Made by a program: the position numbers and the translations under genes. The notes under the pieces were generated by a model, which was not told the origin of the DNA, ran no database searches, and saw only the letters and a program-made list of their open reading frames with translations. This document shows, piece after piece, positions 1,533 to 11,370 of a stretch of DNA of 11,667 nt (within the stretch, counting starts at the first letter, position 1; each line of letters starts with the position of its first letter). Source of the stretch: Promethearchaeia archaeon (GTDB taxonomy: Archaea; Asgardarchaeota; Lokiarchaeia; Sigyniarchaeales; SOKP01); NCBI GenBank assembly GCA_029856155.1, contig JAHQWL010000009.1, forward strand, positions 1 through 11,667, given 5' to 3'.

Positions 1533-3389
1533 GTAAGATATCCAAATAAAGTAATCGAGTTTGTTAATAAGCTCCCTGAGGGGCATTCTGGTTTAAAAAA
1601 GTTAGTTAAGAAAAATTATAAAGAAATAGATTTTGATAAATTGAAACCCTTTAAGCCCGAAAGTGAATTAACAGAAGTACAGAATTTTTATGAGCAAGTT
1701 ATTAATGAAATTTTTTCATCAAATTCAGAAGCTATAGAATTACTTAAGACTTTATCTGTTATAAATACAGAGATAGAAACTAATATTGATTTAAAAAGTT
1801 TAAAAGCTTCCTATAAAGTACTAAATATCGAGATTTCCTTCACTCAATTATTAAATACAGGCTTAATAAAAAAAAAAGAAGGCAAAGAAGATATATATGA
1901 ATTTTCCTCTCCAGAAATTAAAGATGTTTTAGAAACCTTAGCTAATGAAAAGAATCATGACAGAGCTATAAAATACTATAAGAATAAAAAAAAGAAATGG
2001 AAAGTTAATATTTTAGATGATATTGAGTTTCTTTATCATAAAGCAAAACTAAAGCCATCTGAGGAAGTAGTAAATGAATTTTTAACAATTGCCAATAATA
2101 TAGAACAATTTGATTTTAGACATAAAAGATTGATTGATGTTGGACAAGAATTATTTATACTTGAGGATAAATATAAAGCTCCAATTCTAATCGTGCTTGG
2201 AAATTTATTATCTGTCTTGGGTAGTTCTGAAACTGCAGAGAGAATCTTTCTTAATGCCTTAGATATTTTCAAAAATCTGGCGAAAAAATATTACAAAATA
2301 TACCTCCCCTATATTGCTGCGACTCAAAAAAACCTCGGAACACTATATACGGATTTAAAACGTTTTGATGAGGCAGAAAAAGTTTATAGTGATGCCTTAA
2401 GCTCATACAAGGAGTTAGAAAGACAATATTATGATGCGCATTCACCTGGTTTTCATTTTAAAGAGTATGGTAAGATAGAAAAGTCATATATTGATGATCT
2501 TAAGGCATATAACGATATATTAAAGCGATATTATGATATATATATACCCGAGGAGCCCCCTATTACAAGTGAATTTGGAAATGTAGGTATTGATTTAGAT
2601 TTATTAGAAGATATTCAAGATGGAACCATTGATTCTATAGAAAGTTATAAAACACTAGCTAAAATGTCTTATGATATGTATTTATTCGATATTGCTAAAA
2701 CTCATAGTAGTCTTGGACTTATTTATAGTGAATTAATGAGATTTGAAGAAGCAGAAAGGATGCACCTTGAAGCATTAAAGCTTAAAAGAAAAGTTGCGGA
2801 ACATTATCCCGATCAAGTTTTACCTGAGCTTGTCCTTACTTTAATCGATCTCGGTGATTTATATGCTAGCTTAAATAAATTTGATAATGCAGAGCCATTG
2901 TTTAAGGAAGCATTAGAAATTTCTCTCCAATTGGCAGAACAAAATCCAGAAGTATACTTATACAATGTTGCTATTATCCAGAATTCCCTTGGAACTATAT
3001 ATACCAGACTACCGAAATTTGAAGAAGCTGAAAAAATGTATGTTGATGCCTTAAAAATTTTTAAAATTTTTGCAAAAGAAGACCCTAAAACATACAAATT
3101 TAATGTTATTGATGTTCAGAACAACCTTGGCTATTTATTTTTAAATATAAGAAATTTTGAAAGAGCTGAATATTATCTTAATAAAGCATTGAAGAAAGAT
3201 CCTGCCAATAGTGAAATTTTGTATAATATCGCCTCCCTTGAATCTCTTAGAAATAATCATGCAATGGCTTTGGAGATATTAGCAAAAATAATAGCACTTG
3301 ATAAAAATTATATTGAGAGAGCTTTACAAGATACAAAATTTGATGGTCTTAAAGACTTAAAAGAATTTAAAGAATTAACAGGTGAGTGA
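1533..3389 (+). CDS. Tetratricopeptide-repeat protein (kinesin-light-chain-like ~42-47 aa repeats) with an N-terminal winged-helix-like region and a C-terminal TPR cap; start uncertain (track start is TTG 1641)
   Basis: Repeated 'YLPxIAxTxxNLGxLYxxLxRFxEAExxYxxAL' units. C-terminal 'YNIASLES...ALEILAKII......ALQDTKFDGLKD..EF' cap. The frame is open upstream of 1641 back to TGA at 1524-1526. Confidence 0.85.
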   Translation, partial: VRYPNKVIEFVNKLPEGHSGLKKLVKKNYKEIDFDKLKPFKPESELTEVQNFYEQVINEIFSSNSEAIELLKTLSVINTEIETNIDLKSLKASYKVLNIEISFTQLLNTGLIKKKEGKEDIYEFSSPEIKDVLETLANEKNHDRAIKYYKNKKKKWKVNILDDIEFLYHKAKLKPSEEVVNEFLTIANNIEQFDFRHKRLIDVGQELFILEDKYKAPILIVLGNLLSVLGSSETAERIFLNALDIFKNLAKKYYKIYLPYIAATQKNLGTLYTDLKRFDEAEKVYSDALSSYKELERQYYDAHSPGFHFKEYGKIEKSYIDDLKAYNDILKRYYDIYIPEEPPITSEFGNVGIDLDLLEDIQDGTIDSIESYKTLAKMSYDMYLFDIAKTHSSLGLIYSELMRFEEAERMHLEALKLKRKVAEHYPDQVLPELVLTLIDLGDLYASLNKFDNAEPLFKEALEISLQLAEQNPEVYLYNVAIIQNSLGTIYTRLPKFEEAEKMYVDALKIFKIFAKEDPKTYKFNVIDVQNNLGYLFLNIRNFERAEYYLNKALKKDPANSEILYNIASLESLRNNHAMALEILAKIIALDKNYIERALQDTKFDGLKDLKEFKELTGE

Positions 3390-3855
3390 AGTTCTAAAAA
3401 TTAAACTAAAGAAGATCTCTAAACTTAATTTAATATCAATTTTACAATTAGATGTTAAACCAGAACAGAGAAATCTTGTTGCTTCAAATGTAAAATCAAT
3501 AGCAGAAGCTCATTTCAATAAGGATGCTTGGTTTCGAGCGATTTATTCTGATAATGATCCAATTGGATTTGTAATGATCAGTGATTCTTCATTAAAGTAT
3601 AAATCAAATCCAAATCATCAGCCCTCCTATTTTCTTTGGAGATTTATGATTGATGCTAGATATCAAGGAAAAGGATATGGTAAAGAAGCAATAAAATTAG
3701 TAATTAATCATGTTAAAAGTAGGCCAAAGGCAGAAGAACTTCTGTTAAGCCATTCTAAATCAGATGGAAATGCGGGAGACTTTTATAAAAAATTTGGTTT
3801 CGAATATACAGGTAAAGTAATAGATGATGAATTAGTAATGAGTTTAAAATTGTAA
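3382..3855 (+). CDS. GNAT family N-acetyltransferase (spermidine/diamine acetyltransferase-like)
   Basis: Acetyl-CoA motif A 'WRFMIDARYQGKGYG', 'FYKKFGF' and N-terminal 'VKPEQRNLVAS..SIAEA'. Overlaps the end of the TPR gene by 8 nt, suggesting an operon. Confidence 0.9.
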   Translation: MSEVLKIKLKKISKLNLISILQLDVKPEQRNLVASNVKSIAEAHFNKDAWFRAIYSDNDPIGFVMISDSSLKYKSNPNHQPSYFLWRFMIDARYQGKGYGKEAIKLVINHVKSRPKAEELLLSHSKSDGNAGDFYKKFGFEYTGKVIDDELVMSLKL

Positions 3856-3903: not shown

Positions 3904-4788
3904 TTACTTGGTAAATGAAGTTTCTAATTCAGATATTACTAATTTCAAATTATCCATGTTTTGATTTACATCATATAATAATTTAATATCTTCTCTTGAC
4001 AATCTAATTTCACTAGCTTTAGCATTTGCTTCCATATGCTCGATCTTAAATGCTTTAGGAATGGTAATAATATTCTCATGATTAATTAACCACGCAATAG
4101 CAATTTGTTGAATAGTCGAGTTATGTGATTTTGCTACTCGATCTAATTTTTCTCTTAACTCTCCTTCTAATTTATGAAAACCACTATGTCCTAAGGGACT
4201 ATAAGCCGTCATAATGATTCCCTCATTTTGATAAAAAGGTAGCGATTTTTTTATATGTTTTTGTCTTGTAACGCTAGCATTTAATTGATTGTTAACCAGC
4301 TCAGTATTTTTTAGATAAGTCTGAGCTTCTTTAAATTGATCTACAGAAAAATTACTTACTCCTATATATCTCACTTTTCCTTCATTTACAAGATCCTCTA
4401 AAATTCTCATTTGTTTCTCTATTGATATTAAAGGAGATGGCCAATGTATAAGATAAAGATCTATTTGCTTAATTCCTAATCTTTTAAGGCTATTATACGC
4501 CGCTTTTTTCATAGTATTATATCTTAAGTGCATTGGAAACAATTTGGTTGTTATAAATAAATCATCTCTATTATATTCAGAAATTACTTGTCCAACAATT
4601 TTCTCTGATGTACCTTTCCCATACATTTCAGCAGTGTCTATATGAGTAATTCCAAGTTCAATACCTTTCCTTATTGATTCCTTCCATTTTTCATAATAAT
4701 CTTTATTTCTAAAACTTTTAATACCCCAAGTACCTTGACCTAGGATTGGAATTTTCTCTCCTGTTTTCCCTAAGTTAATCTTTTTCAA
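3904..4788 (-). CDS. Aldo/keto reductase (YeaE/AKR3F-like)
   Basis: Motifs 'LGQGTWG', 'IDTAEMYG', 'ITTK', 'DLYLIHWP', 'IGVSNF', 'AYSPLG', 'IPKA', with the D-Y-K-H tetrad present. Start moved from 4824 to TTG 4788 (MKKINLGKTG), which follows SD-like AGTGTGA by 5 nt. Confidence 0.93.
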   Translation of the reverse strand: MKKINLGKTGEKIPILGQGTWGIKSFRNKDYYEKWKESIRKGIELGITHIDTAEMYGKGTSEKIVGQVISEYNRDDLFITTKLFPMHLRYNTMKKAAYNSLKRLGIKQIDLYLIHWPSPLISIEKQMRILEDLVNEGKVRYIGVSNFSVDQFKEAQTYLKNTELVNNQLNASVTRQKHIKKSLPFYQNEGIIMTAYSPLGHSGFHKLEGELREKLDRVAKSHNSTIQQIAIAWLINHENIITIPKAFKIEHMEANAKASEIRLSREDIKLLYDVNQNMDNLKLVISELETSFTK

Positions 4789-4980
4789 TTCTATCACACT
4801 TTCTTTTTTAGAAATAAGAAACAATAAAGAACTTTAATTTTGATTGTTAAAATTTATTATAGTCTTGTAGGATTTCATTCAAAATTGATTGCTTTTTTGC
4901 TAATACTTTTATAAAATATAAAGCGATTTATTTCTGAAGATAATTTTAGCTTATTAGGATAATTTTATGTGCTTTAAAAT

Positions 4981-5027: not shown

Positions 5028-7175
5028 TCAAATCAAGTCTAATTTATTTTGACAATAAGGACAGTGAAGTGGCAATTCTTCATCACAAGTTTCTAATTCA
5101 TCACTACTGAGAATATTTTTCCAACAAATTAATTTATCTCCTCTTTGAATCATATCTCTACCATGATGTTGGGGAATAATATCTTTTGTTTGACAATTAT
5201 CACAAATAACTAATTTGGCCTCGCTTTCTAACTCTTCAGTTGAAAATTCTTTATATAAGAATCTATACCTAAATATTGTTAAACTATTGAGTAGGACTAA
5301 TAAAGAAACACCCATATCACCTATTCCTACAGCAAGCCAAAGCGTCATAAAACCAAGTACTGTTAATACTGCAAATGAAACTTTAACGATAATAGAAGTC
5401 CAAATATTTTGTTTTATTTTTTTATTAGTTTTTTTCGCAATATCGATGTAGGTAAGTATTTTTTTCAAATCATCACCTATAACAATGATATCCGCAGTTT
5501 CCAATGTAATATCCGTAGCAGAGGCCCCTATTGCGATCCCTAAATCGGATAAAGCTAATGCTGGAGCATCATTTATGCCATCGCCAACCATTGCTACCCC
5601 TTTATATTTCTTTTTTAAATTTTGGATTTCTTGTAGTTTTTGGTCTGGTAATTGTTCACCATATGCTTGATCAATGTCTAAACATGCTCCAATTGTATTA
5701 CATACTCTCTGATTATCACCAGATATCAAAACGGTCTCATAACCTCTCCTTTTTAAACCATTAATTAGAATAGGTGCTGAAACTCTTAAGACATCTCTAA
5801 TTGAGATGATTCCTAATAAATGCTTTTGATTTCCTAGCAGAATTGGTATTGTTCCTGAAGTTTCAATATTTTCCATATCATTCTTCGGAAGGTCGTAGTT
5901 TAACTCTTCAATAAATTTTTGACTCCCTACATAAAACATCTCGCCATCGATTTTTCCTTTTACTCCTTTTCCTTTTATTACTTCAAAATTATCAACAGCT
6001 TGAAATGGAATCTCCATATCTTTAGCTTGCTTTACAACAGCTTTTCCAATGGGATGTTCTGAAAGAGCTTCTAAACTGGCAGCAACACTAATTATATCCG
6101 ATTTATTGGCTCCATTATAAGTATAAATTTCAAAAATCTTTAAATTACCTTCAGTAAGGGTTCCAGTTTTATCAAACGCGAAAACCTCGATATCTTGAAG
6201 CTTTTCAATAAATTTGTTCCCTTTAACTAAAATTCCTTCTCTAGCTTGCTTAGTCAAGGATGCTATATTTGCTAAAGGAGTAGATAGGGTTAAAGCACAT
6301 GGACATGAAACTACTAATAGAACTAATCCACGATAGAACCAATCATAAAAGTTTAGTCCAAATAATGATGGAATAGTCATTACTAAAATGGATGATAAAA
6401 GAATTACAGGAGTATAATATTTTGCAAACTTTTCAATAAATTTTTCGTGATCGCTTTTATTTTGCTGAGCAATTTTCACACTTTCTGCAATTTGAGCTAC
6501 AATTGTATTTGTACTTTCTCTCATAACTTTAATATCTATAAAACTTTCAGAATTTAGGCTAGCAGCAAAAACTTCTTTACCTTCTTCTTTAAAAACCGGA
6601 ATAGATTCTCCTGTAATTGCACTTTCATCAAGATAGGAGCTCCCTTTAATAATAATACCATCTAATGGGACTTTCATTCCAGGCTTTATGCCAACAATAT
6701 CCCCAATTTTTACTTCTTTTGATGGAACATTCACATATCCGCTTTCAGTTTTCAATAAAGCATCATCAGGAGCGAGTTCAAGTAGTTCTTTAATTGCGTT
6801 TCTTGATTTATCGGTTGTTATTTCCTCCAACCTTTCTGCTATTGCATATAATAATAGTGCTGTTGCACCTTCTTGACCATGTAATATGAAAAACGATGCG
6901 ACACCAGCTATCAACATCAATAGATTTGCCGTTATTTTTTTTTCACTCAAATCTTCTATTGCTTCTTTAACAACTCCAGAACTTGAAAGAAAAATTGAGC
7001 CAATTGCCAGAATTTGAGCTATTATTATAATTTCAAATGCGAATTCTAACAAAATAGAAATCCCTAGCAAAATTGCTGCAGGAATAATAAAATACCAGAA
7101 ATTTTCTTCGAAAAAAGATTCTTCTTCTTCCTCTTCTACTTCGCAAAAAGATGATGTACATGCAATAGTTGTAAT
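5028..7175 (-). CDS. Heavy-metal P1B-2-type ATPase (Zn/Cd/Pb exporter, ZntA/CadA-like), about 715 aa if started at ATT 7175
   Basis: Motifs 'TGES', 'SCPCAL', 'DKTGTLT', 'SEHP', 'GDGINDAP'. Lys in 'QNIWTSIIVK' and 'GDMG' in the last TM helices fit P1B-2 specificity. The frame extends 35 codons upstream of 7070 to an ATT 6 nt after AGGTGA. Confidence 0.95.
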   Translation of the reverse strand: MTTIACTSSFCEVEEEEEESFFEENFWYFIIPAAILLGISILLEFAFEIIIIAQILAIGSIFLSSSGVVKEAIEDLSEKKITANLLMLIAGVASFFILHGQEGATALLLYAIAERLEEITTDKSRNAIKELLELAPDDALLKTESGYVNVPSKEVKIGDIVGIKPGMKVPLDGIIIKGSSYLDESAITGESIPVFKEEGKEVFAASLNSESFIDIKVMRESTNTIVAQIAESVKIAQQNKSDHEKFIEKFAKYYTPVILLSSILVMTIPSLFGLNFYDWFYRGLVLLVVSCPCALTLSTPLANIASLTKQAREGILVKGNKFIEKLQDIEVFAFDKTGTLTEGNLKIFEIYTYNGANKSDIISVAASLEALSEHPIGKAVVKQAKDMEIPFQAVDNFEVIKGKGVKGKIDGEMFYVGSQKFIEELNYDLPKNDMENIETSGTIPILLGNQKHLLGIISIRDVLRVSAPILINGLKRRGYETVLISGDNQRVCNTIGACLDIDQAYGEQLPDQKLQEIQNLKKKYKGVAMVGDGINDAPALALSDLGIAIGASATDITLETADIIVIGDDLKKILTYIDIAKKTNKKIKQNIWTSIIVKVSFAVLTVLGFMTLWLAVGIGDMGVSLLVLLNSLTIFRYRFLYKEFSTEELESEAKLVICDNCQTKDIIPQHHGRDMIQRGDKLICWKNILSSDELETCDEELPLHCPYCQNKLDLI

Positions 7176-7355: not shown

Positions 7356-8246
7356 TCATTTTATAACGTAAATAAGTTTTTGACCTTCTTCTTCTTCCAG
7401 ATTCAACTCTCGTCTGATAGCATTTCTAACCAAATATCCACCAACATGTAGTATAGAGTCTTTAAGTATAGAATCTTGGTCCATTGAAGCATTACAAGGA
7501 TATGCATGATGTGCCTTGCTTACTCTTTCATTTAAGGAAAGATTACCACTTTTTCCATTTTTAAAATACTTTGATTTTAATTGTTGGCAAACATAATAAG
7601 TACTTCCACATGGAGCACTTTGAATGACACACGTATCTTCGATTGATTCTCCATCCTTACTTAGTAGAAATGAAACAATAGGTTCTCCGATTTTAAAATA
7701 ATTTATAAATTCGTCAATAAAATTATGTTTATTTGTTAAATGAAAACCAATTTTATTATATTCATTTAAATTTTTACTTAAGGAGCAGAAAGGCTTAGGA
7801 AACACTGCTTGAATACCATATTTTTCAAATTCTTCTAATACTTGAACTTGAAGTCCAGCAGGTACCCATTTAGGATCCTCTATTGGGATAATTACAGCTT
7901 TTACTCCACTATCTTTGAGATAATAAGGAAGACCAGAAAGTAAATCTTGATGGATTCCTACAACCATTAAAAAATCAACTTTAGGGAGATTTTTAGGAAG
8001 GTATTCTTCTGGTTCTTCAATAAATTGAGGAACATTTTCTCCTACTTTTTCAAAATAATAAATTGAATTAGAAAAACTCTTAGCATGCTCACGGCATTTA
8101 TCACATTTTACATTTTGCTCTAAATCTTCACATGCTTTACAAAATTCCTCATTATTAATGAGATTTCCTACAAACTTTTGAGTTAGCATCTCTGTATCTG
8201 GTCCAATGCCGTACAGAACTCCTAGTTTATATCTTTTATCAGTCAA
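7356..8246 (-). CDS. DUF166 family protein (Cys-rich, function unknown)
   Basis: Motifs 'PEEYLP', 'IHQDL', 'FPKPFCSL', 'GEP', 'VIQSAPCGSTYYV', 'HHAYPCNASM..D...DSILH.GG', plus N-terminal CxxC-x8-CxxC. TTG start. Confidence 0.82.
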   Translation of the reverse strand: MTDKRYKLGVLYGIGPDTEMLTQKFVGNLINNEEFCKACEDLEQNVKCDKCREHAKSFSNSIYYFEKVGENVPQFIEEPEEYLPKNLPKVDFLMVVGIHQDLLSGLPYYLKDSGVKAVIIPIEDPKWVPAGLQVQVLEEFEKYGIQAVFPKPFCSLSKNLNEYNKIGFHLTNKHNFIDEFINYFKIGEPIVSFLLSKDGESIEDTCVIQSAPCGSTYYVCQQLKSKYFKNGKSGNLSLNERVSKAHHAYPCNASMDQDSILKDSILHVGGYLVRNAIRRELNLEEEEGQKLIYVIK

Positions 8247-8830: not shown

Positions 8831-9052
8831 AAAAAGAATTCCCCCATTGTTTTTTTATTGGTTTGATTTTTTTGTAATGAATTAGACCTTTGGTATTTTT
8901 ATATTTTATGTTTAGAAACAATAAATATTGTGAGGAGTTTTCATAAAAACTAGATACATTAAATCAGTAAGATAACTTCAATAAAAAATAAACCATATTT
9001 TAAAATAGCTATAAGTTTTACTATTTACAATAAATTTAAAGATGCTCATACA

Positions 9053-10623
9053 ATGGAATACAGAAAATTAGCGATTACTGGAGCCAATGGATATTTAGGG
9101 AAACATACAATAAAGGCAGCGATCCAAAAAGGATGGCAAGTAGTGGGGGTTGTACGACGAGATGATGCGGCTAAAGAAGTGGAATCTTGGGAGCTAAAGC
9201 AGTAATTGTTAAAGATTTCAATCTTGATTCGTTAAAAAATGCTTTTGCAGGTTGTAAAGCAGTCCTACATTTTAGAGGCGTAGTTTGCGGGGCTAAAGAA
9301 CTTTTCGAAAAGGTCAATATTGATGGAATGCGCATTTTAACTGAAGCTGCTCTTGAAACAAAAGTATCTAGAATAATATTTCCTTCAGGTTTGGGAGTTG
9401 ATCGATATGGGGAAGAAGAATGGGCTAATGATGCATATTTCTATTCAAAGAATAAAGCTGAACAAATACTTAAAAATGGAAATGTTCCCTATATAATTTT
9501 TAGACCCTCTTATATCTTAGGACCTAATGATGAATTAATCCCAGAAATGATAGACCAAATTGGGAATGGAATTGTTCAAGTTGCTGGAAATGGTACAATC
9601 CCAATGCAACCTATATATGTTAAAGATGCAATCCATGCTTTTTTAGCTGCGGCTGATGGTGCAGGAGATAATAATCAAATTTTTGATCTCGTCGGACCTC
9701 AAGTCATAACTATGCTTGAATTAATCGATATGGTTGTTCAAAATATGACTGATTTAGGTTTTAATATTCCTCATCCTCGCATAAATACAATAACATTTGA
9801 AGATGCTCCAGAACAACTAGGGATTTGCAAAGAAATGGTTGATGTTATGAAGTGTGATATTACTTCAAATGGTGATATTGCAGCTAAAGCGTTAGGTTAT
9901 AAATTATCAGATCTGGATGAAGCTATAAAAGCAGCAATAGTAGCAAAGATGTTTCCAGATATCAAAGAAAAAGGAGAAAAAGCTATTATTCTATTATCTG
10001 GTGGGATTGACTCTGCAGTTGCTCTCTACTGGGCAAATAATAAAGGTTATGATATAACTCCTATTTCATTTAATTACAATTTCCGACCAGAAAATGAAAA
10101 AAAAGCAGCTTTAAAATTAGCAGAAAGTCTAGATCTAAATCTAATTGAAATCAATATCCCATTTTTAAAAGAATCAATAGATTTGCGCATAGAGGGCCTT
10201 CCTATACCGAGTGCTATTCACGCTCCAGAGGGATTTATACCTTCTCGAAACCTTATTTTCTACTCTATTGCAGCATACTATGCTGATGCTTTTAGTTGTA
10301 ATGTTATAATAGGTGGGCATATATCCGCTGACTCACAAAATTTCCTTGATGCAACACCAGAATTTTTTAATTCTCTTGAGGGACTTATTAATAAGGGAAA
10401 ACACAGTAAAGATAAAACTACAATAAAATTATTATTTCCTTTAGCAAAAAAGACTAAATTAGATGTAGTAAAATTAGCTAATAAATTAAAGGTTCCTTTA
10501 GAATGGACTTGGAGCTGTTATAGTGATGGAGATCAACCATGCGGGACGTGTAGTTCTTGTCGCAAAAGAAGAGAAACCTTTAATAACCTAAGCTATTCTG
10601 ATCCAAAATTTTCTTTACGATAA
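9053..10623 (+). CDS. queC: Fusion of an atypical/extended SDR (NAD(P)-binding, NDUFA9-like) with 7-cyano-7-deazaguanine synthase QueC; interrupted by a one-base frameshift near 9185-9189; 523 aa if corrected
   Basis: 9053-9205 encodes MEYRKLAITGANGYLGKHTIKAAIQKGWQVVGVVRRDDAAKEVES(WELKQ*), carrying TGxxGxxG. ORF 9187-10623 continues with SDR motifs 'YFYSK' (YxxxK) and 'FRPSYILGPND', then QueC motifs 'LLSGGIDS' (SGGIDS at 9997-10014), 'IPSRN' and 'TWSCY-x6-PCGTCSSC'. Confidence 0.88.
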
Positions 10624-10713: not shown

Positions 10714-11370
10714 ATGATTAACTCTGAAGAAGTAACTTCAAAGGAGGCAGAGCAAAACATAATTGTAATTTGCCCTACCTGCAACACAAAAAAAGAATTA
10801 AAAATACCCACAAAAATAATTAATCAAGCTAAACAATTAACTACTGTTTCTATACCTTCGGGGACCGTATGTGAACATGGGTTTCAATCTTTTGTAGACA
10901 AAAACTTTAAAGTTCGTGGATATCAAAAAGTAGATTTTGAATTTTCTCATATGGAATTTTTTGAGGGTAGTGGTACTGATTTAGCAGATACAGATGATCC
11001 TACTGCCACACTAAGTTCACAGCAATTGTTTCAAGATATTATAAGTCTATTAAGAAGTTATGTTGATGATAAAGAAATTCTTGGAAGTGGAATGTTTACT
11101 GTAGAAGGGCATGTAGTTTATTCTTCACTTCCTAGTAACACATTATTTTCGATAATAAAAGAATTCGAAGTGAGGAGTGAGAAAAAATTAAGTAACTTAA
11201 AGAAAATGTATCTTGAATTAGAGAATAATCAAAAAATTTGCGCTAGTTATGTTGAAATAAAAGATATACGATTCGCACTAGTGTTGTTCTTTTCCCATAT
11301 TGTAAAATTAGGTATGGGAAATCTTTATCTTAACGATCTGGTAAAAAAAATAAGGGTTTTAGAAAGTTAA
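10714..11370 (+). CDS. Zn-ribbon protein with a C-terminal Roadblock/LAMTOR/MglB-like domain
   Basis: N-terminal 'CPTC...CEH.F..FVDKNFKVRGYQ', an acidic linker, and a C-terminal ~120 aa with 'ILGSGMFTVEGHVVYSSL' and 'VKLGMGNLYLNDLVKKI', matching the Roadblock alpha/beta pattern. Confidence 0.65.
   Translation: MINSEEVTSKEAEQNIIVICPTCNTKKELKIPTKIINQAKQLTTVSIPSGTVCEHGFQSFVDKNFKVRGYQKVDFEFSHMEFFEGSGTDLADTDDPTATLSSQQLFQDIISLLRSYVDDKEILGSGMFTVEGHVVYSSLPSNTLFSIIKEFEVRSEKKLSNLKKMYLELENNQKICASYVEIKDIRFALVLFFSHIVKLGMGNLYLNDLVKKIRVLES

Follow-up and report, generated by a model that had tools for sequence, protein, structure and literature searches.

An SDR oxidoreductase is joined to a complete QueC in a 523-aa protein encoded at 9053-10623 (+) of the 11,667-nucleotide stretch of DNA analyzed here (the window), once a one-base gap in the gene is bridged. 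The fusion is real and conserved and is not a chimera: the original prediction allowed that it might be missing from relatives or be an assembly artifact, and we found it in 62 species genomes, all named Asgard (Promethearchaeota-type) MAGs. What is new is that carriers lacking QueE have arcTGT, and the Asgard carriers checked also ArcS, with the fusion as their only QueC. Our reading, held tentatively and at somewhat less than even probability, is that the fusion would supply preQ0, would need no QueE for this and would catalyze an NADP(H)-dependent step. No paper describing an SDR–QueC fusion was found in the literature searched, in agreement with the earlier view that it is uncharacterized.

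The features of the locus are listed in Table 1. The frame from ATG 9053 reads MEYRKLAITGANGYLGKH...VESWELKQ and stops at TAA 9203-9205, and the frame shifted by -1 runs without interruption for 482 aa, from 9175 to a stop codon at 10621-10623. In a DNA alignment with a 95% identical relative (L003), which codes for the intact 523-aa protein P0001, one base is absent from the window, which has GAATC-TTGGG where L003 has GAATCGTTGGG; across this point P0001 reads ...KEVESLGANA.... The gap puts the first 45 codons, including the GxxGxxG motif, in another frame than the remainder, and the bridged product (45 + 478 = 523 aa) is 96% identical to P0001. The TGxxGxxG that had been placed in a frameshifted leader is indeed there, as TGANGYLG in the frame of ATG 9053, where it is accompanied by VRR.

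Table 1. Coordinates of the features at the queD and SDR–QueC locus
Feature	Position	Strand	Basis or content
queD, 6-carboxytetrahydropterin synthase / PTPS family, 151 aa	8375..8830	-	Pfam PTPS, 81 bits
AT-rich divergent intergenic region, 222 bp, common to queD and the fusion gene	8831..9052	.	Sequence
SDR N-terminal part, 44 codons and two bases	9053..9186	+	beta1, GxxGxxG, alphaA, beta2, VRR; frame of ATG 9053
Missing-base site (frameshift relative to intact orthologues)	9186..9187	+	Alignment with L003
SDR remainder, bridged residues 46-300	9187..9951	+	Pfam, PDB and Foldseek matches; invariant residues
Short linker, residues about 301-308	9952..9975	+	pLDDT dip in the AlphaFold2 model
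QueC domain, residues 309-523, and stop codon	9976..10623	+	Pfam, TIGR00364 and 3bl5 matches

Separate from the question of function is whether the gap is an assembly error or whether this copy, and this copy only, is truly a pseudogene or else encodes a protein that is truncated N-terminally and begins at TTG 9187. The missing base sits outside any homopolymer, a start at TTG 9187 would give a 478-aa product without GxxGxxG, and another Asgard locus (L075) also has its halves in different, overlapping frames. We nevertheless consider a pseudogene or truncated form unlikely on balance, as, the gap aside, 482 codons are open and 96% identical to P0001, the gene is the sole QueC of its genome, and the copies found in congeneric genomes are open over long stretches, 540-549 aa in three and 441 aa in one. 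Moreover, the source genome is a MAG of 104 contigs (97% complete, 5.7% contamination), which makes a consensus error at this site plausible. Inspection of 9180-9190 revealed neither a homopolymer nor a slippery heptamer, and programmed frameshifting was rejected because of the missing heptamer and the three uninterrupted full-length copies in the same genus.

Pfam places both domains in the one 482-aa frame, Epimerase/NAD_binding_10 at aa 10-170 and QueC at aa 269-471 (9979-10587); the first part of the Epimerase model (positions 2-36) is found in the 50-aa leader. Downstream of the gap, the SDR part contains Ser112, Tyr129-x3-Lys133 (YFYSK), FRPSY, MQPI, DLVG and a C-terminal lobe with a DVMxCD motif. 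In 101 fused proteins, G10, G13, G16, R35, S112 and K133 are invariant, Y129 is kept in 100, and the cofactor-site and Ser-Tyr-Lys residues likewise vary little or not at all when fused and split SDRs of 30-52% identity are compared. The mean pairwise identity of the Rossmann part (63%) is on a par with that of QueC (60%) in the same proteins and this, together with the invariant residues, argues that the SDR domain is under selection. The domain is assigned to the NADP(H)-binding extended SDRs, in an NDUFA9-like branch with an intact Ser-Tyr-Lys triad, and it looks catalytic and of the NADP type.

The best sequence match of the SDR among solved structures is the NDUFA9/NUEM 39-kDa subunit of complex I (9g83_P, phmmer E 8.5e-18, followed by many other complex-I 39-kDa subunits; also 7o71_E), which has the same fold, GxxGxxG, YxxxK and the NADP-type Arg after beta2. 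NDUFA9 binds NADPH, and catalysis by it is not known. Unlike NDUFA9, the SDR described here is fused to or encoded beside QueC instead of residing in complex I, is only about 20% identical in the structural alignment, and also has an invariant Ser at the catalytic-triad position. Its Foldseek neighbors comprise extended SDRs and NDUFA9, with a TM by target of 0.67-0.75, comparable to that of UDP-sugar 4-epimerases. AlphaFold2 modeled the whole 523 aa with a pLDDT of 95.1 and a pTM of 0.85, and the pLDDT falls to about 80 in one ten-residue block only, the linker; in this model, the SDR packs rigidly on the QueC domain to form one rigid body.

For the QueC domain, we used the feature definitions, including the essential Tyr, of Libby et al. 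2026 for PF06508 cluster 1 (PMC13329287), in which Y35, R99 and Y189 of canonical QueC are essential, as is Y131, with Y131F being partly active. Like the canonical enzymes (B. subtilis 3BL5, E. coli P0AG67), the domain is matched over the full length of PF06508 (1-208 of 210; 164.5 bits, cut-off 22), finds B. subtilis QueC (3bl5, E 6.4e-18), keeps the equivalents of Y35, R99 and Y189, and is linked to queD. Its PP-loop, SGGxDS in canonical QueC, reads SGGIDS (S316, G317, G318, D320 and S321 invariant in the 101 fused proteins), and the four Cys of the zinc site C-x8-C-x2-C-x2-C, here WSCYSDGDQPCGTCSSC, are also invariant, with the Tyr after the first Cys (Y189 in E. coli) kept in 95. VPxRN is present as IPSRN, with P and N invariant, and R kept in 90 proteins and replaced by K in 11. 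Unlike in canonical QueC, about 300 more residues, the SDR, lie N-terminally; YxQxHxxE is absent, the window having YNFRPENE (across the fused proteins Y in 101/101, E in 100/101, Q replaced by L/W/Y/F, and H by P in 95/101); YPDC is absent, FPDA being found in the fusions and NFLDA in the window (F in 98/101, D invariant, C replaced by A/T/S/V); and there is a new conserved His in GGH. The window also has WSCY. The identity of the domain with stand-alone QueCs from other Asgards reaches only 27-32%, its score stays below the cut-off of the NCBIfam equivalog TIGR00364 (142.3 versus 150.3 bits), and most carrier genomes lack queE. We regard the C-terminal domain as a putative Zn- and ATP-dependent QueC of a distinct archaeal subfamily.

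All the motifs named in the original prediction are present in the window, including the departures YNFRPENE and NFLDA. However, these departures are not peculiar to the fusion, since some 110 QueCs without a fusion partner, close to 217 aa long and belonging to Thermoplasmata, Acidobacteriota and Nitrososphaerales, have the altered motifs as well. The departures are the mark of a larger archaeal QueC subfamily, members of which also occur without fusion; its motif set is Y-x-x-R-P..E / PEGxIPxRN / GGH / FPDA / WSCY. The unfused QueCs of Thermoplasmata (P0291, P0351/L130) are 42-50% identical to the QueC domain of the fusion, have YxxRP, GGH, FPDA and WSCY, and are likewise linked to a PTPS gene, but they lack an SDR and have a small cupin between QueC and PTPS (QueC - Cupin_2 - PTPS).

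Two other QueC-like identities were rejected. For the defense proteins QatC and Cap9, the sole PADLOC match was its generic 'QueC' model, whose 93 bits fall short of the Pfam QueC score; the neighboring genes of the fusion had no PADLOC matches, and the Cap9 chain 9nto_B matched the fusion at 1.2e-10, weaker than QueC. Phillips et al. 2012 are said to have found that GAT-QueC of Crenarchaeota is an archaeosine synthase. This protein also carries an N-terminal partner on a QueC-like domain, in archaea and in the archaeosine pathway, but its partner is a class-II glutamine amidotransferase that supplies ammonia, whereas here it is an SDR of the NADP type, and GAT-QueC replaces ArcS, which the genome of the window possesses.

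More than 300 fused homologues (protein clusters) of 515-536 aa have an identical architecture, which speaks against a chance arrangement, and within a sample of the phylum the fusion turned up in a single family, in two of its genera. The SDR also occurs as a separate gene directly upstream of QueC in contigs of Bathyarchaeia, Thermoproteota and other archaea, where it is 36-49% identical over all 300 aa and the two frames are 3-6 nt apart or overlap. The existence of these split forms strengthens the functional link between SDR and QueC. In the QueC tree, the SDR-linked QueCs group in one clade (92/80 support), with fused and split forms intermixed. A single bacterium has QueC ahead of the SDR instead, and its QueC falls on the canonical side of the tree. 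Among 101 sampled genomes of Bathyarchaeia, only two contain the SDR.

The fusion gene stands head-to-head with queD, and this arrangement suggests that the shared intergenic region may act as a promoter; a search of the whole window against Rfam gave no RNA family. QueD scores 73.6 bits against NCBIfam QueD TIGR03367, below the cut-off of 89.25, and is the orthologue of the QueD in canonical QueE-QueD-QueC clusters of a sister genus (208-214 bits; about 65% identity, as read off the alignment by eye). It is the sole PTPS gene of its genome, lies upstream and divergent in 55 of the 62 fusion loci, and is their only generally conserved neighbor; DUF166 and a 218-aa ORF near the fusion represent subclade synteny. 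The split-form loci, when compared, had nothing in common beyond the SDR and QueC pair. In all 25 sampled relatives from the family (own genome excluded), PTPS was present or absent together with QueC (17 with both, 8 with neither), and the relatives without both include three genomes of the carrier genus. On the other hand, many Asgard families have PTPS genes without QueC or QueE, so queD could have another role. SDR+DUF2867 proteins near PP-loop genes in another Asgard family (L024, L025) have a different architecture and were set aside as unrelated to the module.

To our knowledge, all known routes to 7-deazaguanines (queuosine, archaeosine, DNA deazaguanines and toyocamycin-type antibiotics) go via the radical-SAM enzyme QueE. 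The genome of the window has arcTGT, ArcS, a GCHY-1B/MptA-type cyclohydrolase and one QueD, and we found in it no QueC other than the fusion, no match to the QueF family and no QueE. The proteins in it that come closest to Asgard QueE are NrdG and glycyl-radical activases: a 251-aa candidate (C24) picked up with TIGR03365 was discarded as NrdG (TIGR02495, 157 bits), the other weak radical-SAM matches as glycyl-radical activases or SPASM proteins, and TIGR04508 returned nothing. A real QueE (190-380 bits, full length) was found in 17 sister-genus genomes among the 81 family genomes searched, and in only 1 of the 42 genomes of the two carrier genera (G104), which has a second cluster of its own. 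The survey of Asgard genomes that had been proposed thus found the fusion as the only QueC of the carrier genomes checked, beside queD; carriers have arcTGT, and ArcS is also present in both other Asgard carriers checked.

Outside the Asgards, three split-form genomes from Bathyarchaeia/Thermoproteota, one of them a closed chromosome, have arcTGT and the SDR and QueC pair, and neither QueE nor PTPS was found in them. The QueF T-fold (PF14489) had no match in five split-form and related genomes. QueE does occur in two carriers, G209 (Nitrososphaeria) and the bacterium G210, and is probably present in G311, from a distant fused clade. Vut_1 transporters of the YhhQ type are found mostly in those family genomes that lack QueE, among them 15 of the 42 searched from the carrier genera, which makes salvage of a precursor plausible. 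YhhQ transports preQ0 and preQ1, and a role in preQ0 salvage has been proposed for Archaea (PMC5372724).

With arcTGT and ArcS in the genome and no second QueC beside the fusion, the most likely role of the fusion is to supply preQ0, which arcTGT inserts, for archaeosine. QueE is missing from most carriers, from which it follows that their QueC domain is not fed by the canonical CPH4-to-CDG step and that the precursor is made or salvaged by a route not yet described. In the reading we favor, the SDR would perform an NADP(H)-dependent redox step on such a precursor, which might be an imported 7-deazaguanine with its C7 side chain at another oxidation level, or a pterin from the adjacent QueD. 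It would then pass a CDG-type carboxylate directly to the QueC domain, which, using ATP and ammonia, would turn it into the nitrile. PreQ0 as the product, a catalytic role for the SDR and its place ahead of the QueC step are all things we infer. Several observations pull against this. In Asgards, the tight linkage with queD would favor a substrate derived from a pterin, yet the carriers from Bathyarchaeia and Thermoproteota have no PTPS, and queD may do something else altogether; loss of QueE is not universal among carriers; NDUFA9, the closest solved SDR relative, is without known catalysis; and the window's own copy is frameshifted.

A first alternative is that the fusion is an ordinary preQ0 synthase (CDG -> ADG -> preQ0) with the SDR as a non-catalytic, NADP(H)-binding structural or redox-sensing module, comparable to NDUFA9 and NmrA-type proteins, and with CDG being imported or made by an unrecognized analogue of QueE. 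It accounts for the QueC domain, in which the PP-loop, the Zn Cys4 and the equivalents of Y35, R99, N100, D133 and Y189 are kept. Members of the same subfamily are found beside PTPS in Thermoplasmata without an SDR, so the QueC domain alone may be a complete preQ0 synthase, and both the kinship of the SDR with the complex-I NDUFA9 subunits and the position of the fusion as the only QueC in an arcTGT and ArcS genome also fit. It does not readily account for an SDR that is conserved at least as well as QueC, with Ser-Tyr-Lys and NADP-site residues that hardly vary over deep divergence, or for a pair that stays adjacent, closely spaced or overlapping in other phyla. Moreover, it leaves the loss of QueE, or of QueD and QueE, in carriers unexplained, and we know of no precedent for CDG import. 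We therefore regard an ordinary synthase as unlikely.

The original prediction had suggested a non-homologous QueF stand-in, and in its wider form this means that the SDR gives a hydride to preQ0 or to the ATP-activated QueC intermediate, following QueF or carboxylic-acid-reductase logic, with preQ1, an aldehyde or a new deazapurine as product. QueF is an NADPH-dependent preQ0 reductase with a T-fold, and the fusion would resemble it in using NADPH on a 7-deazaguanine if this idea holds, but the SDR is not homologous to it. The NADP-type Rossmann site (VRR) is in keeping with hydride transfer, as is GAT-QueC, which also has an N-terminal partner domain, one thought to supply the nucleophile. 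The QueC motifs proposed to face the substrate are altered, but these alterations are common to unfused QueCs. QueF is missing from G210, the only bacterium with QueC-SDR, which does have QueD, QueE and a bacterial TGT; however, this is a single genome, and QueF is present in each of four Vicinamibacteria whose stand-alone SDR is 30-40% identical to those of the split forms, so that a general replacement of QueF by the SDR was rejected. ArcS, which acts on the nitrile of preQ0-tRNA, is present in the window's genome and in both other Asgard carriers checked. Finally, most carriers lack QueE and hence have no CDG or preQ0 from a known route that could be reduced. The stand-in is thus not supported, and hydride transfer by the fusion in any of these forms appears improbable.

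We rate as decidedly improbable a radical-SAM-independent 7-deazaguanine route made up of QueD and SDR–QueC, in which the one fusion would replace both QueE and QueC. The bound NADP+ of the SDR would transiently oxidize 6-carboxytetrahydropterin, permitting the ring contraction that is normally carried out by QueE, much as sugar rings are contracted by some extended SDRs, and conversion to preQ0 would be completed by the fused QueC domain.

A pterin amide/nitrile pathway unrelated to archaeosine, with the QueC-like domain activating the 6-carboxylate of the QueD product (CPH4 or oxidized 6-carboxypterin) and the SDR as pteridine reductase, would suit queD as the sole generally linked gene, gained and lost with the fusion in the family, the missing QueE, the residues proposed to face the substrate that differ from canonical QueC, and the fact that SDRs include pteridine and sepiapterin reductases, but it is highly improbable, given that split-form carriers have no PTPS, that the domain scores as a full-length QueC in a clade nested among QueCs, and that arcTGT and ArcS would be left without a source of base unless this is salvaged.

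In summary, an Asgard lineage keeps QueD, arcTGT and ArcS and has swapped QueE and QueC for a single SDR–QueC protein, and some Bathyarchaeia retain just the SDR and QueC pair. If the module remodels a scavenged base into preQ0, this would amount to a new route of salvage, connecting tRNA modification in archaea with queuosine metabolites of bacteria; the other possible outcome is that the deazapurine ring is built in a new way. With either outcome, a gap in the known pathway would be closed and hundreds of database entries now called just "QueC" would be corrected.

As listed in the table below, the fusion gene is read in two frames in the AT-rich window (G+C ~30%), and Pfam aligns the 50-residue leader to the opening 36 positions of its Epimerase model. 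The closest relative with available DNA (locus L003) shows 95% DNA identity and encodes an intact 523-aa fusion (P0001). Alignment with this locus showed that exactly one base is absent from the window, between 9186 and 9187 (GAATC-TTGGG versus GAATCGTTGGG), at a site with neither a homopolymer nor a slippery sequence. The bridged window protein is 523 aa long and 96% identical to P0001. This gap is probably an assembly or consensus error rather than a real lesion, since the frame is otherwise undamaged, the genome has no other QueC, and three other fusion copies from the same genus have open frames (540-549 aa). At most, the gap in the window's copy is an artefact; the SDR-QueC fusion itself is not. 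At another Asgard locus (L075:5710-7244), which keeps the usual synteny downstream, the SDR occupies a 338-aa frame that overlaps, in a different reading frame, the 195-aa frame of QueC. This may be another copy in the fused clade that is frameshifted or genuinely split.

Features of the window and pathway genes of its genome
Feature	Position	Strand	Remarks
TPR protein	1641-3389		
GNAT acetyltransferase	3382-3855		
Aldo/keto reductase	3904-4824		
P-type ATPase	5028-7070		
DUF166 protein	7356-8246	-	PF02593, 160 bits; just beyond queD
Leader frame of fusion	ATG 9053 to TAA 9203-9205	+	Rossmann start LAITGANGYLGKH, then VVRRDD
Long frame of fusion	open 9175 to stop 10621-10623	+	offset -1 versus leader; frame reading
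Epimerase/NAD_binding_10	residues 10-170 of long frame		Pfam
QueC domain	residues 269-471 of long frame		Pfam; full length (positions 1-208 of 210), 164.5 bits
218-aa ORF	10714-11370	+	starts 90 nt downstream of fusion, same strand
arcTGT	window's genome		548 aa
ArcS	window's genome		696 aa, TGT+DUF5591+PUA
Cyclohydrolase	window's genome		GCHY-1B/MptA-type
PTPS/QueD	window's genome		one copy, the neighbour of the fusion

A word-indexed search with the fusion matched >300 proteins, of which the best 120 measure 427-570 aa (nearly all 512-570), have the SDR+QueC architecture and share 52-96% identity. Public databases list such proteins as QueC; where names are given, they read "7-cyano-7-deazaguanine synthase" and belong to Promethearchaeota-type MAGs with various NCBI labels. 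Among 151 genomes sampled from the phylum, fused frames of ~520-566 aa were present in 12, from two genera of one family and not counting the window's genome, and a thirteenth carries a shorter frame (441 aa). No stand-alone QueC from these fusion-bearing genomes was among the matches listed, and other Asgards have either a stand-alone QueC of 240-270 aa or no QueC. A scan of species genomes yielded 62 fused loci, with queD upstream and head-to-head in 55. The original prediction that SDR and QueC are joined in one protein is therefore borne out, and the chimera that it had considered as an alternative, with the fusion absent from relatives, does not apply: the fusion is real and old. It had also stated that no characterised SDR-QueC fusion was known, and we found none in the literature searched, nor any description of the fusion, of its split form or of the connection to missing QueE; an SDR fusion is not mentioned by Libby et al. 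2026 (PMC13329287).

Further neighbours are confined to subclades. A DUF166 orthologue occupies the same place in 31 of the 62 loci, and the window's copy scores weakly against the NCBIfam DfsP selenoprotein model. The 218-aa ORF, kept in 29 loci, has no family in Pfam, NCBIfam or PADLOC, and its ESM-Atlas look-alike falls in a cluster of 278 'hypothetical proteins', all from Archaea and mostly Promethearchaeota. Beyond this ORF, relatives carry further conserved ORFs (279, 260 and 244 aa), and in L003 a downstream ORF is weakly Bud32-like. The TPR, GNAT, aldo/keto reductase and P-type ATPase genes of the window appear unremarkable and undamaged.

Six residues never vary among 101 fused proteins: G10, G13, G16, R35 (in the VRR typical of NADP sites), S112 and K133; Y129 is kept in 100. 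These seven residues are also invariant or nearly so when fused and split SDRs are taken together (30-52% identity). The Rossmann part is slightly more conserved than QueC (mean pairwise identity 63% versus 60%). Judged from these residues, the SDR domain looks active and of the NADP type. AlphaFold2, run on the whole chain with the fusion alignment, gave a pLDDT of 95.1 and a pTM of 0.85, which predicts that the two domains are held in a fixed arrangement. Among solved structures, B. subtilis QueC (3bl5) is closest in sequence to the C-terminal half, and NDUFA9-type complex-I subunits are closest to the N-terminal half. The fold of the SDR resembles extended SDRs generally, including UDP-sugar 4-epimerases, ArnA and NDUFA9.

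With the SDR domain as query, an exhaustive HMMER search retrieved stand-alone SDRs of ~300 aa, 36-49% identical over their full length, and a more distant fused clade (33-34%). On the contigs of the two stand-alone SDRs that were traced, a stand-alone QueC comes immediately next, its start overlapping the stop of the SDR. Flank scans found SDR and then QueC, with 3-6 nt between the open frames, in one genome of Thermoproteota and three of Bathyarchaeia, the two genes 2.6 kb apart in a Nitrososphaeria genome, and the reversed order in one uncultured bacterium (G210), where a LOG/SLOG-family protein (PF03641) is divergent from the pair (L107:4513-6879). The maximum-likelihood tree built from QueC domains has a 100/96 branch between canonical QueCs and a second clade, within which the SDR-linked QueCs group together (92/80). 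Fused and split forms are intermixed in this group, so fusion or fission occurred more than once. Architecture, conservation and gene order show that the NADP(H) SDR and QueC are a module, a two-component unit. Two other arrangements were seen: a distant SDR homologue (~30% identity) in four Nitrosopumilaceae genomes, divergent from the cobalamin genes cbiD, cbiG and cbiX and adjoining a SAM synthetase gene (L112:2973-6852; also L109, L111 and L114), and, in another Asgard family, NmrA-type SDR+DUF2867 proteins of ~500-530 aa encoded next to a PP-loop ATPase gene, not QueC (L024:2368-3963 and L025:1595-3100, both minus strand).

Canonical QueC has five motifs (SGGxDS, YxQxHxxE, VPxRN, YPDC and a Cys4 site), with Y35, R99, Y131 and Y189 reported as essential (Libby et al. 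2026, PMC13329287). The fusion retains the PP-loop, Y35, E42, R99/N100, D133, Y189 and the zinc site, whereas it lacks Q37, H39 (Pro), Y131 (Phe) and C134 (Ala) and has an additional conserved His within a GGH motif. The departures noted originally are real, but they are not confined to the fusion, since ~110 unfused QueCs of 205-235 aa (42-50% identity) from Thermoplasmata, Acidobacteriota and Nitrososphaerales carry the same set. Thermoplasmata-type members of this unfused subfamily (L130:6001-9739 and the P0291 contig) show the order QueC, Cupin_2 (111 aa), small PTPS, with FeoB and FeoA between cupin and PTPS in L130; no SDR or radical-SAM gene lies within 6 kb of the clusters on these two contigs. 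Stand-alone QueCs of two other Asgard families (L011, L012, L018, L019 and L023) are a third flavour, with LYGSxE, TFPDN and a first zinc loop 8 residues longer, and one of these families has QueE close by.

The window's genome, 97% complete, combines the fusion with arcTGT and ArcS, and neither QueF nor a second QueC was found in it. It lacks QueE: its best matches to an Asgard-QueE HMM were NrdG and glycyl-radical activases, and no frame in this genome has the QueE N-terminal signature near its N-terminus, as QueE itself does. Across 81 genomes of the family the QueE search was bimodal: 17 sister-genera genomes have a full-length QueE (190-380 bits), and only 1 of 42 genomes from the two carrier genera has one. 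This exception (G104) has, in addition to the fusion, a separate cluster of PTPS, a 229-aa QueE (191 bits) and a divergent 252-aa QueC-like gene (L119, G104:C7:62000-66316), which may be an acquired deazaguanine cassette. The fusion-adjacent queD is orthologous to that of the canonical QueE-QueD-QueC clusters of a sister genus, and PTPS and QueC of either type occur together in the family (17 genomes with both, 8 with neither). Neither QueE nor PTPS was found in three Bathyarchaeia/Thermoproteota genomes that carry the split pair (one a closed chromosome), and all three have arcTGT. There are exceptions to the absence of QueE: in the Nitrososphaeria genome a real QueE adjoins a second QueC, G210 has QueE, QueD and a bacterial TGT, and QueE is probably present in one genome from the distant fused clade. 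YhhQ-type transporters (Vut_1) in the family occur mostly in QueE-less genomes, among them 15 of the 42 searched in the two carrier genera, which fits base salvage (PMC5372724).

The output of the module is most likely preQ0, since the fusion is the sole QueC beside arcTGT and ArcS. Most carriers lack QueE, and some also QueD, so the usual substrate supply is missing; a strictly linked SDR with intact catalytic residues is the evident candidate to perform the chemistry that is lacking. We tentatively favour, at somewhat less than even chances, a redox step by the SDR upstream of the QueC reaction. The module could remodel an imported deazaguanine, in keeping with the Bathyarchaeia carriers and with where YhhQ transporters occur, or, improbably, convert the QueD product without QueE, which fits the queD linkage and the co-loss in Asgards. 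Less probable than an upstream redox step, though the strongest of its competitors, is an ordinary QueC whose NADPH-binding domain takes no part in catalysis. The originally proposed reductive tailoring, or a role for the SDR as a QueF stand-in, would suit G210, which has no QueF match, but it is unlikely given ArcS, the lack of a CDG source in most carriers, and the co-occurrence of QueF with SDR homologues in Vicinamibacteria. A pterin-directed function seems very unlikely. The main new result is the pathway context of SDR-QueC, which serves as the only QueC alongside the archaeosine enzymes arcTGT and ArcS in organisms that mostly lack QueE.
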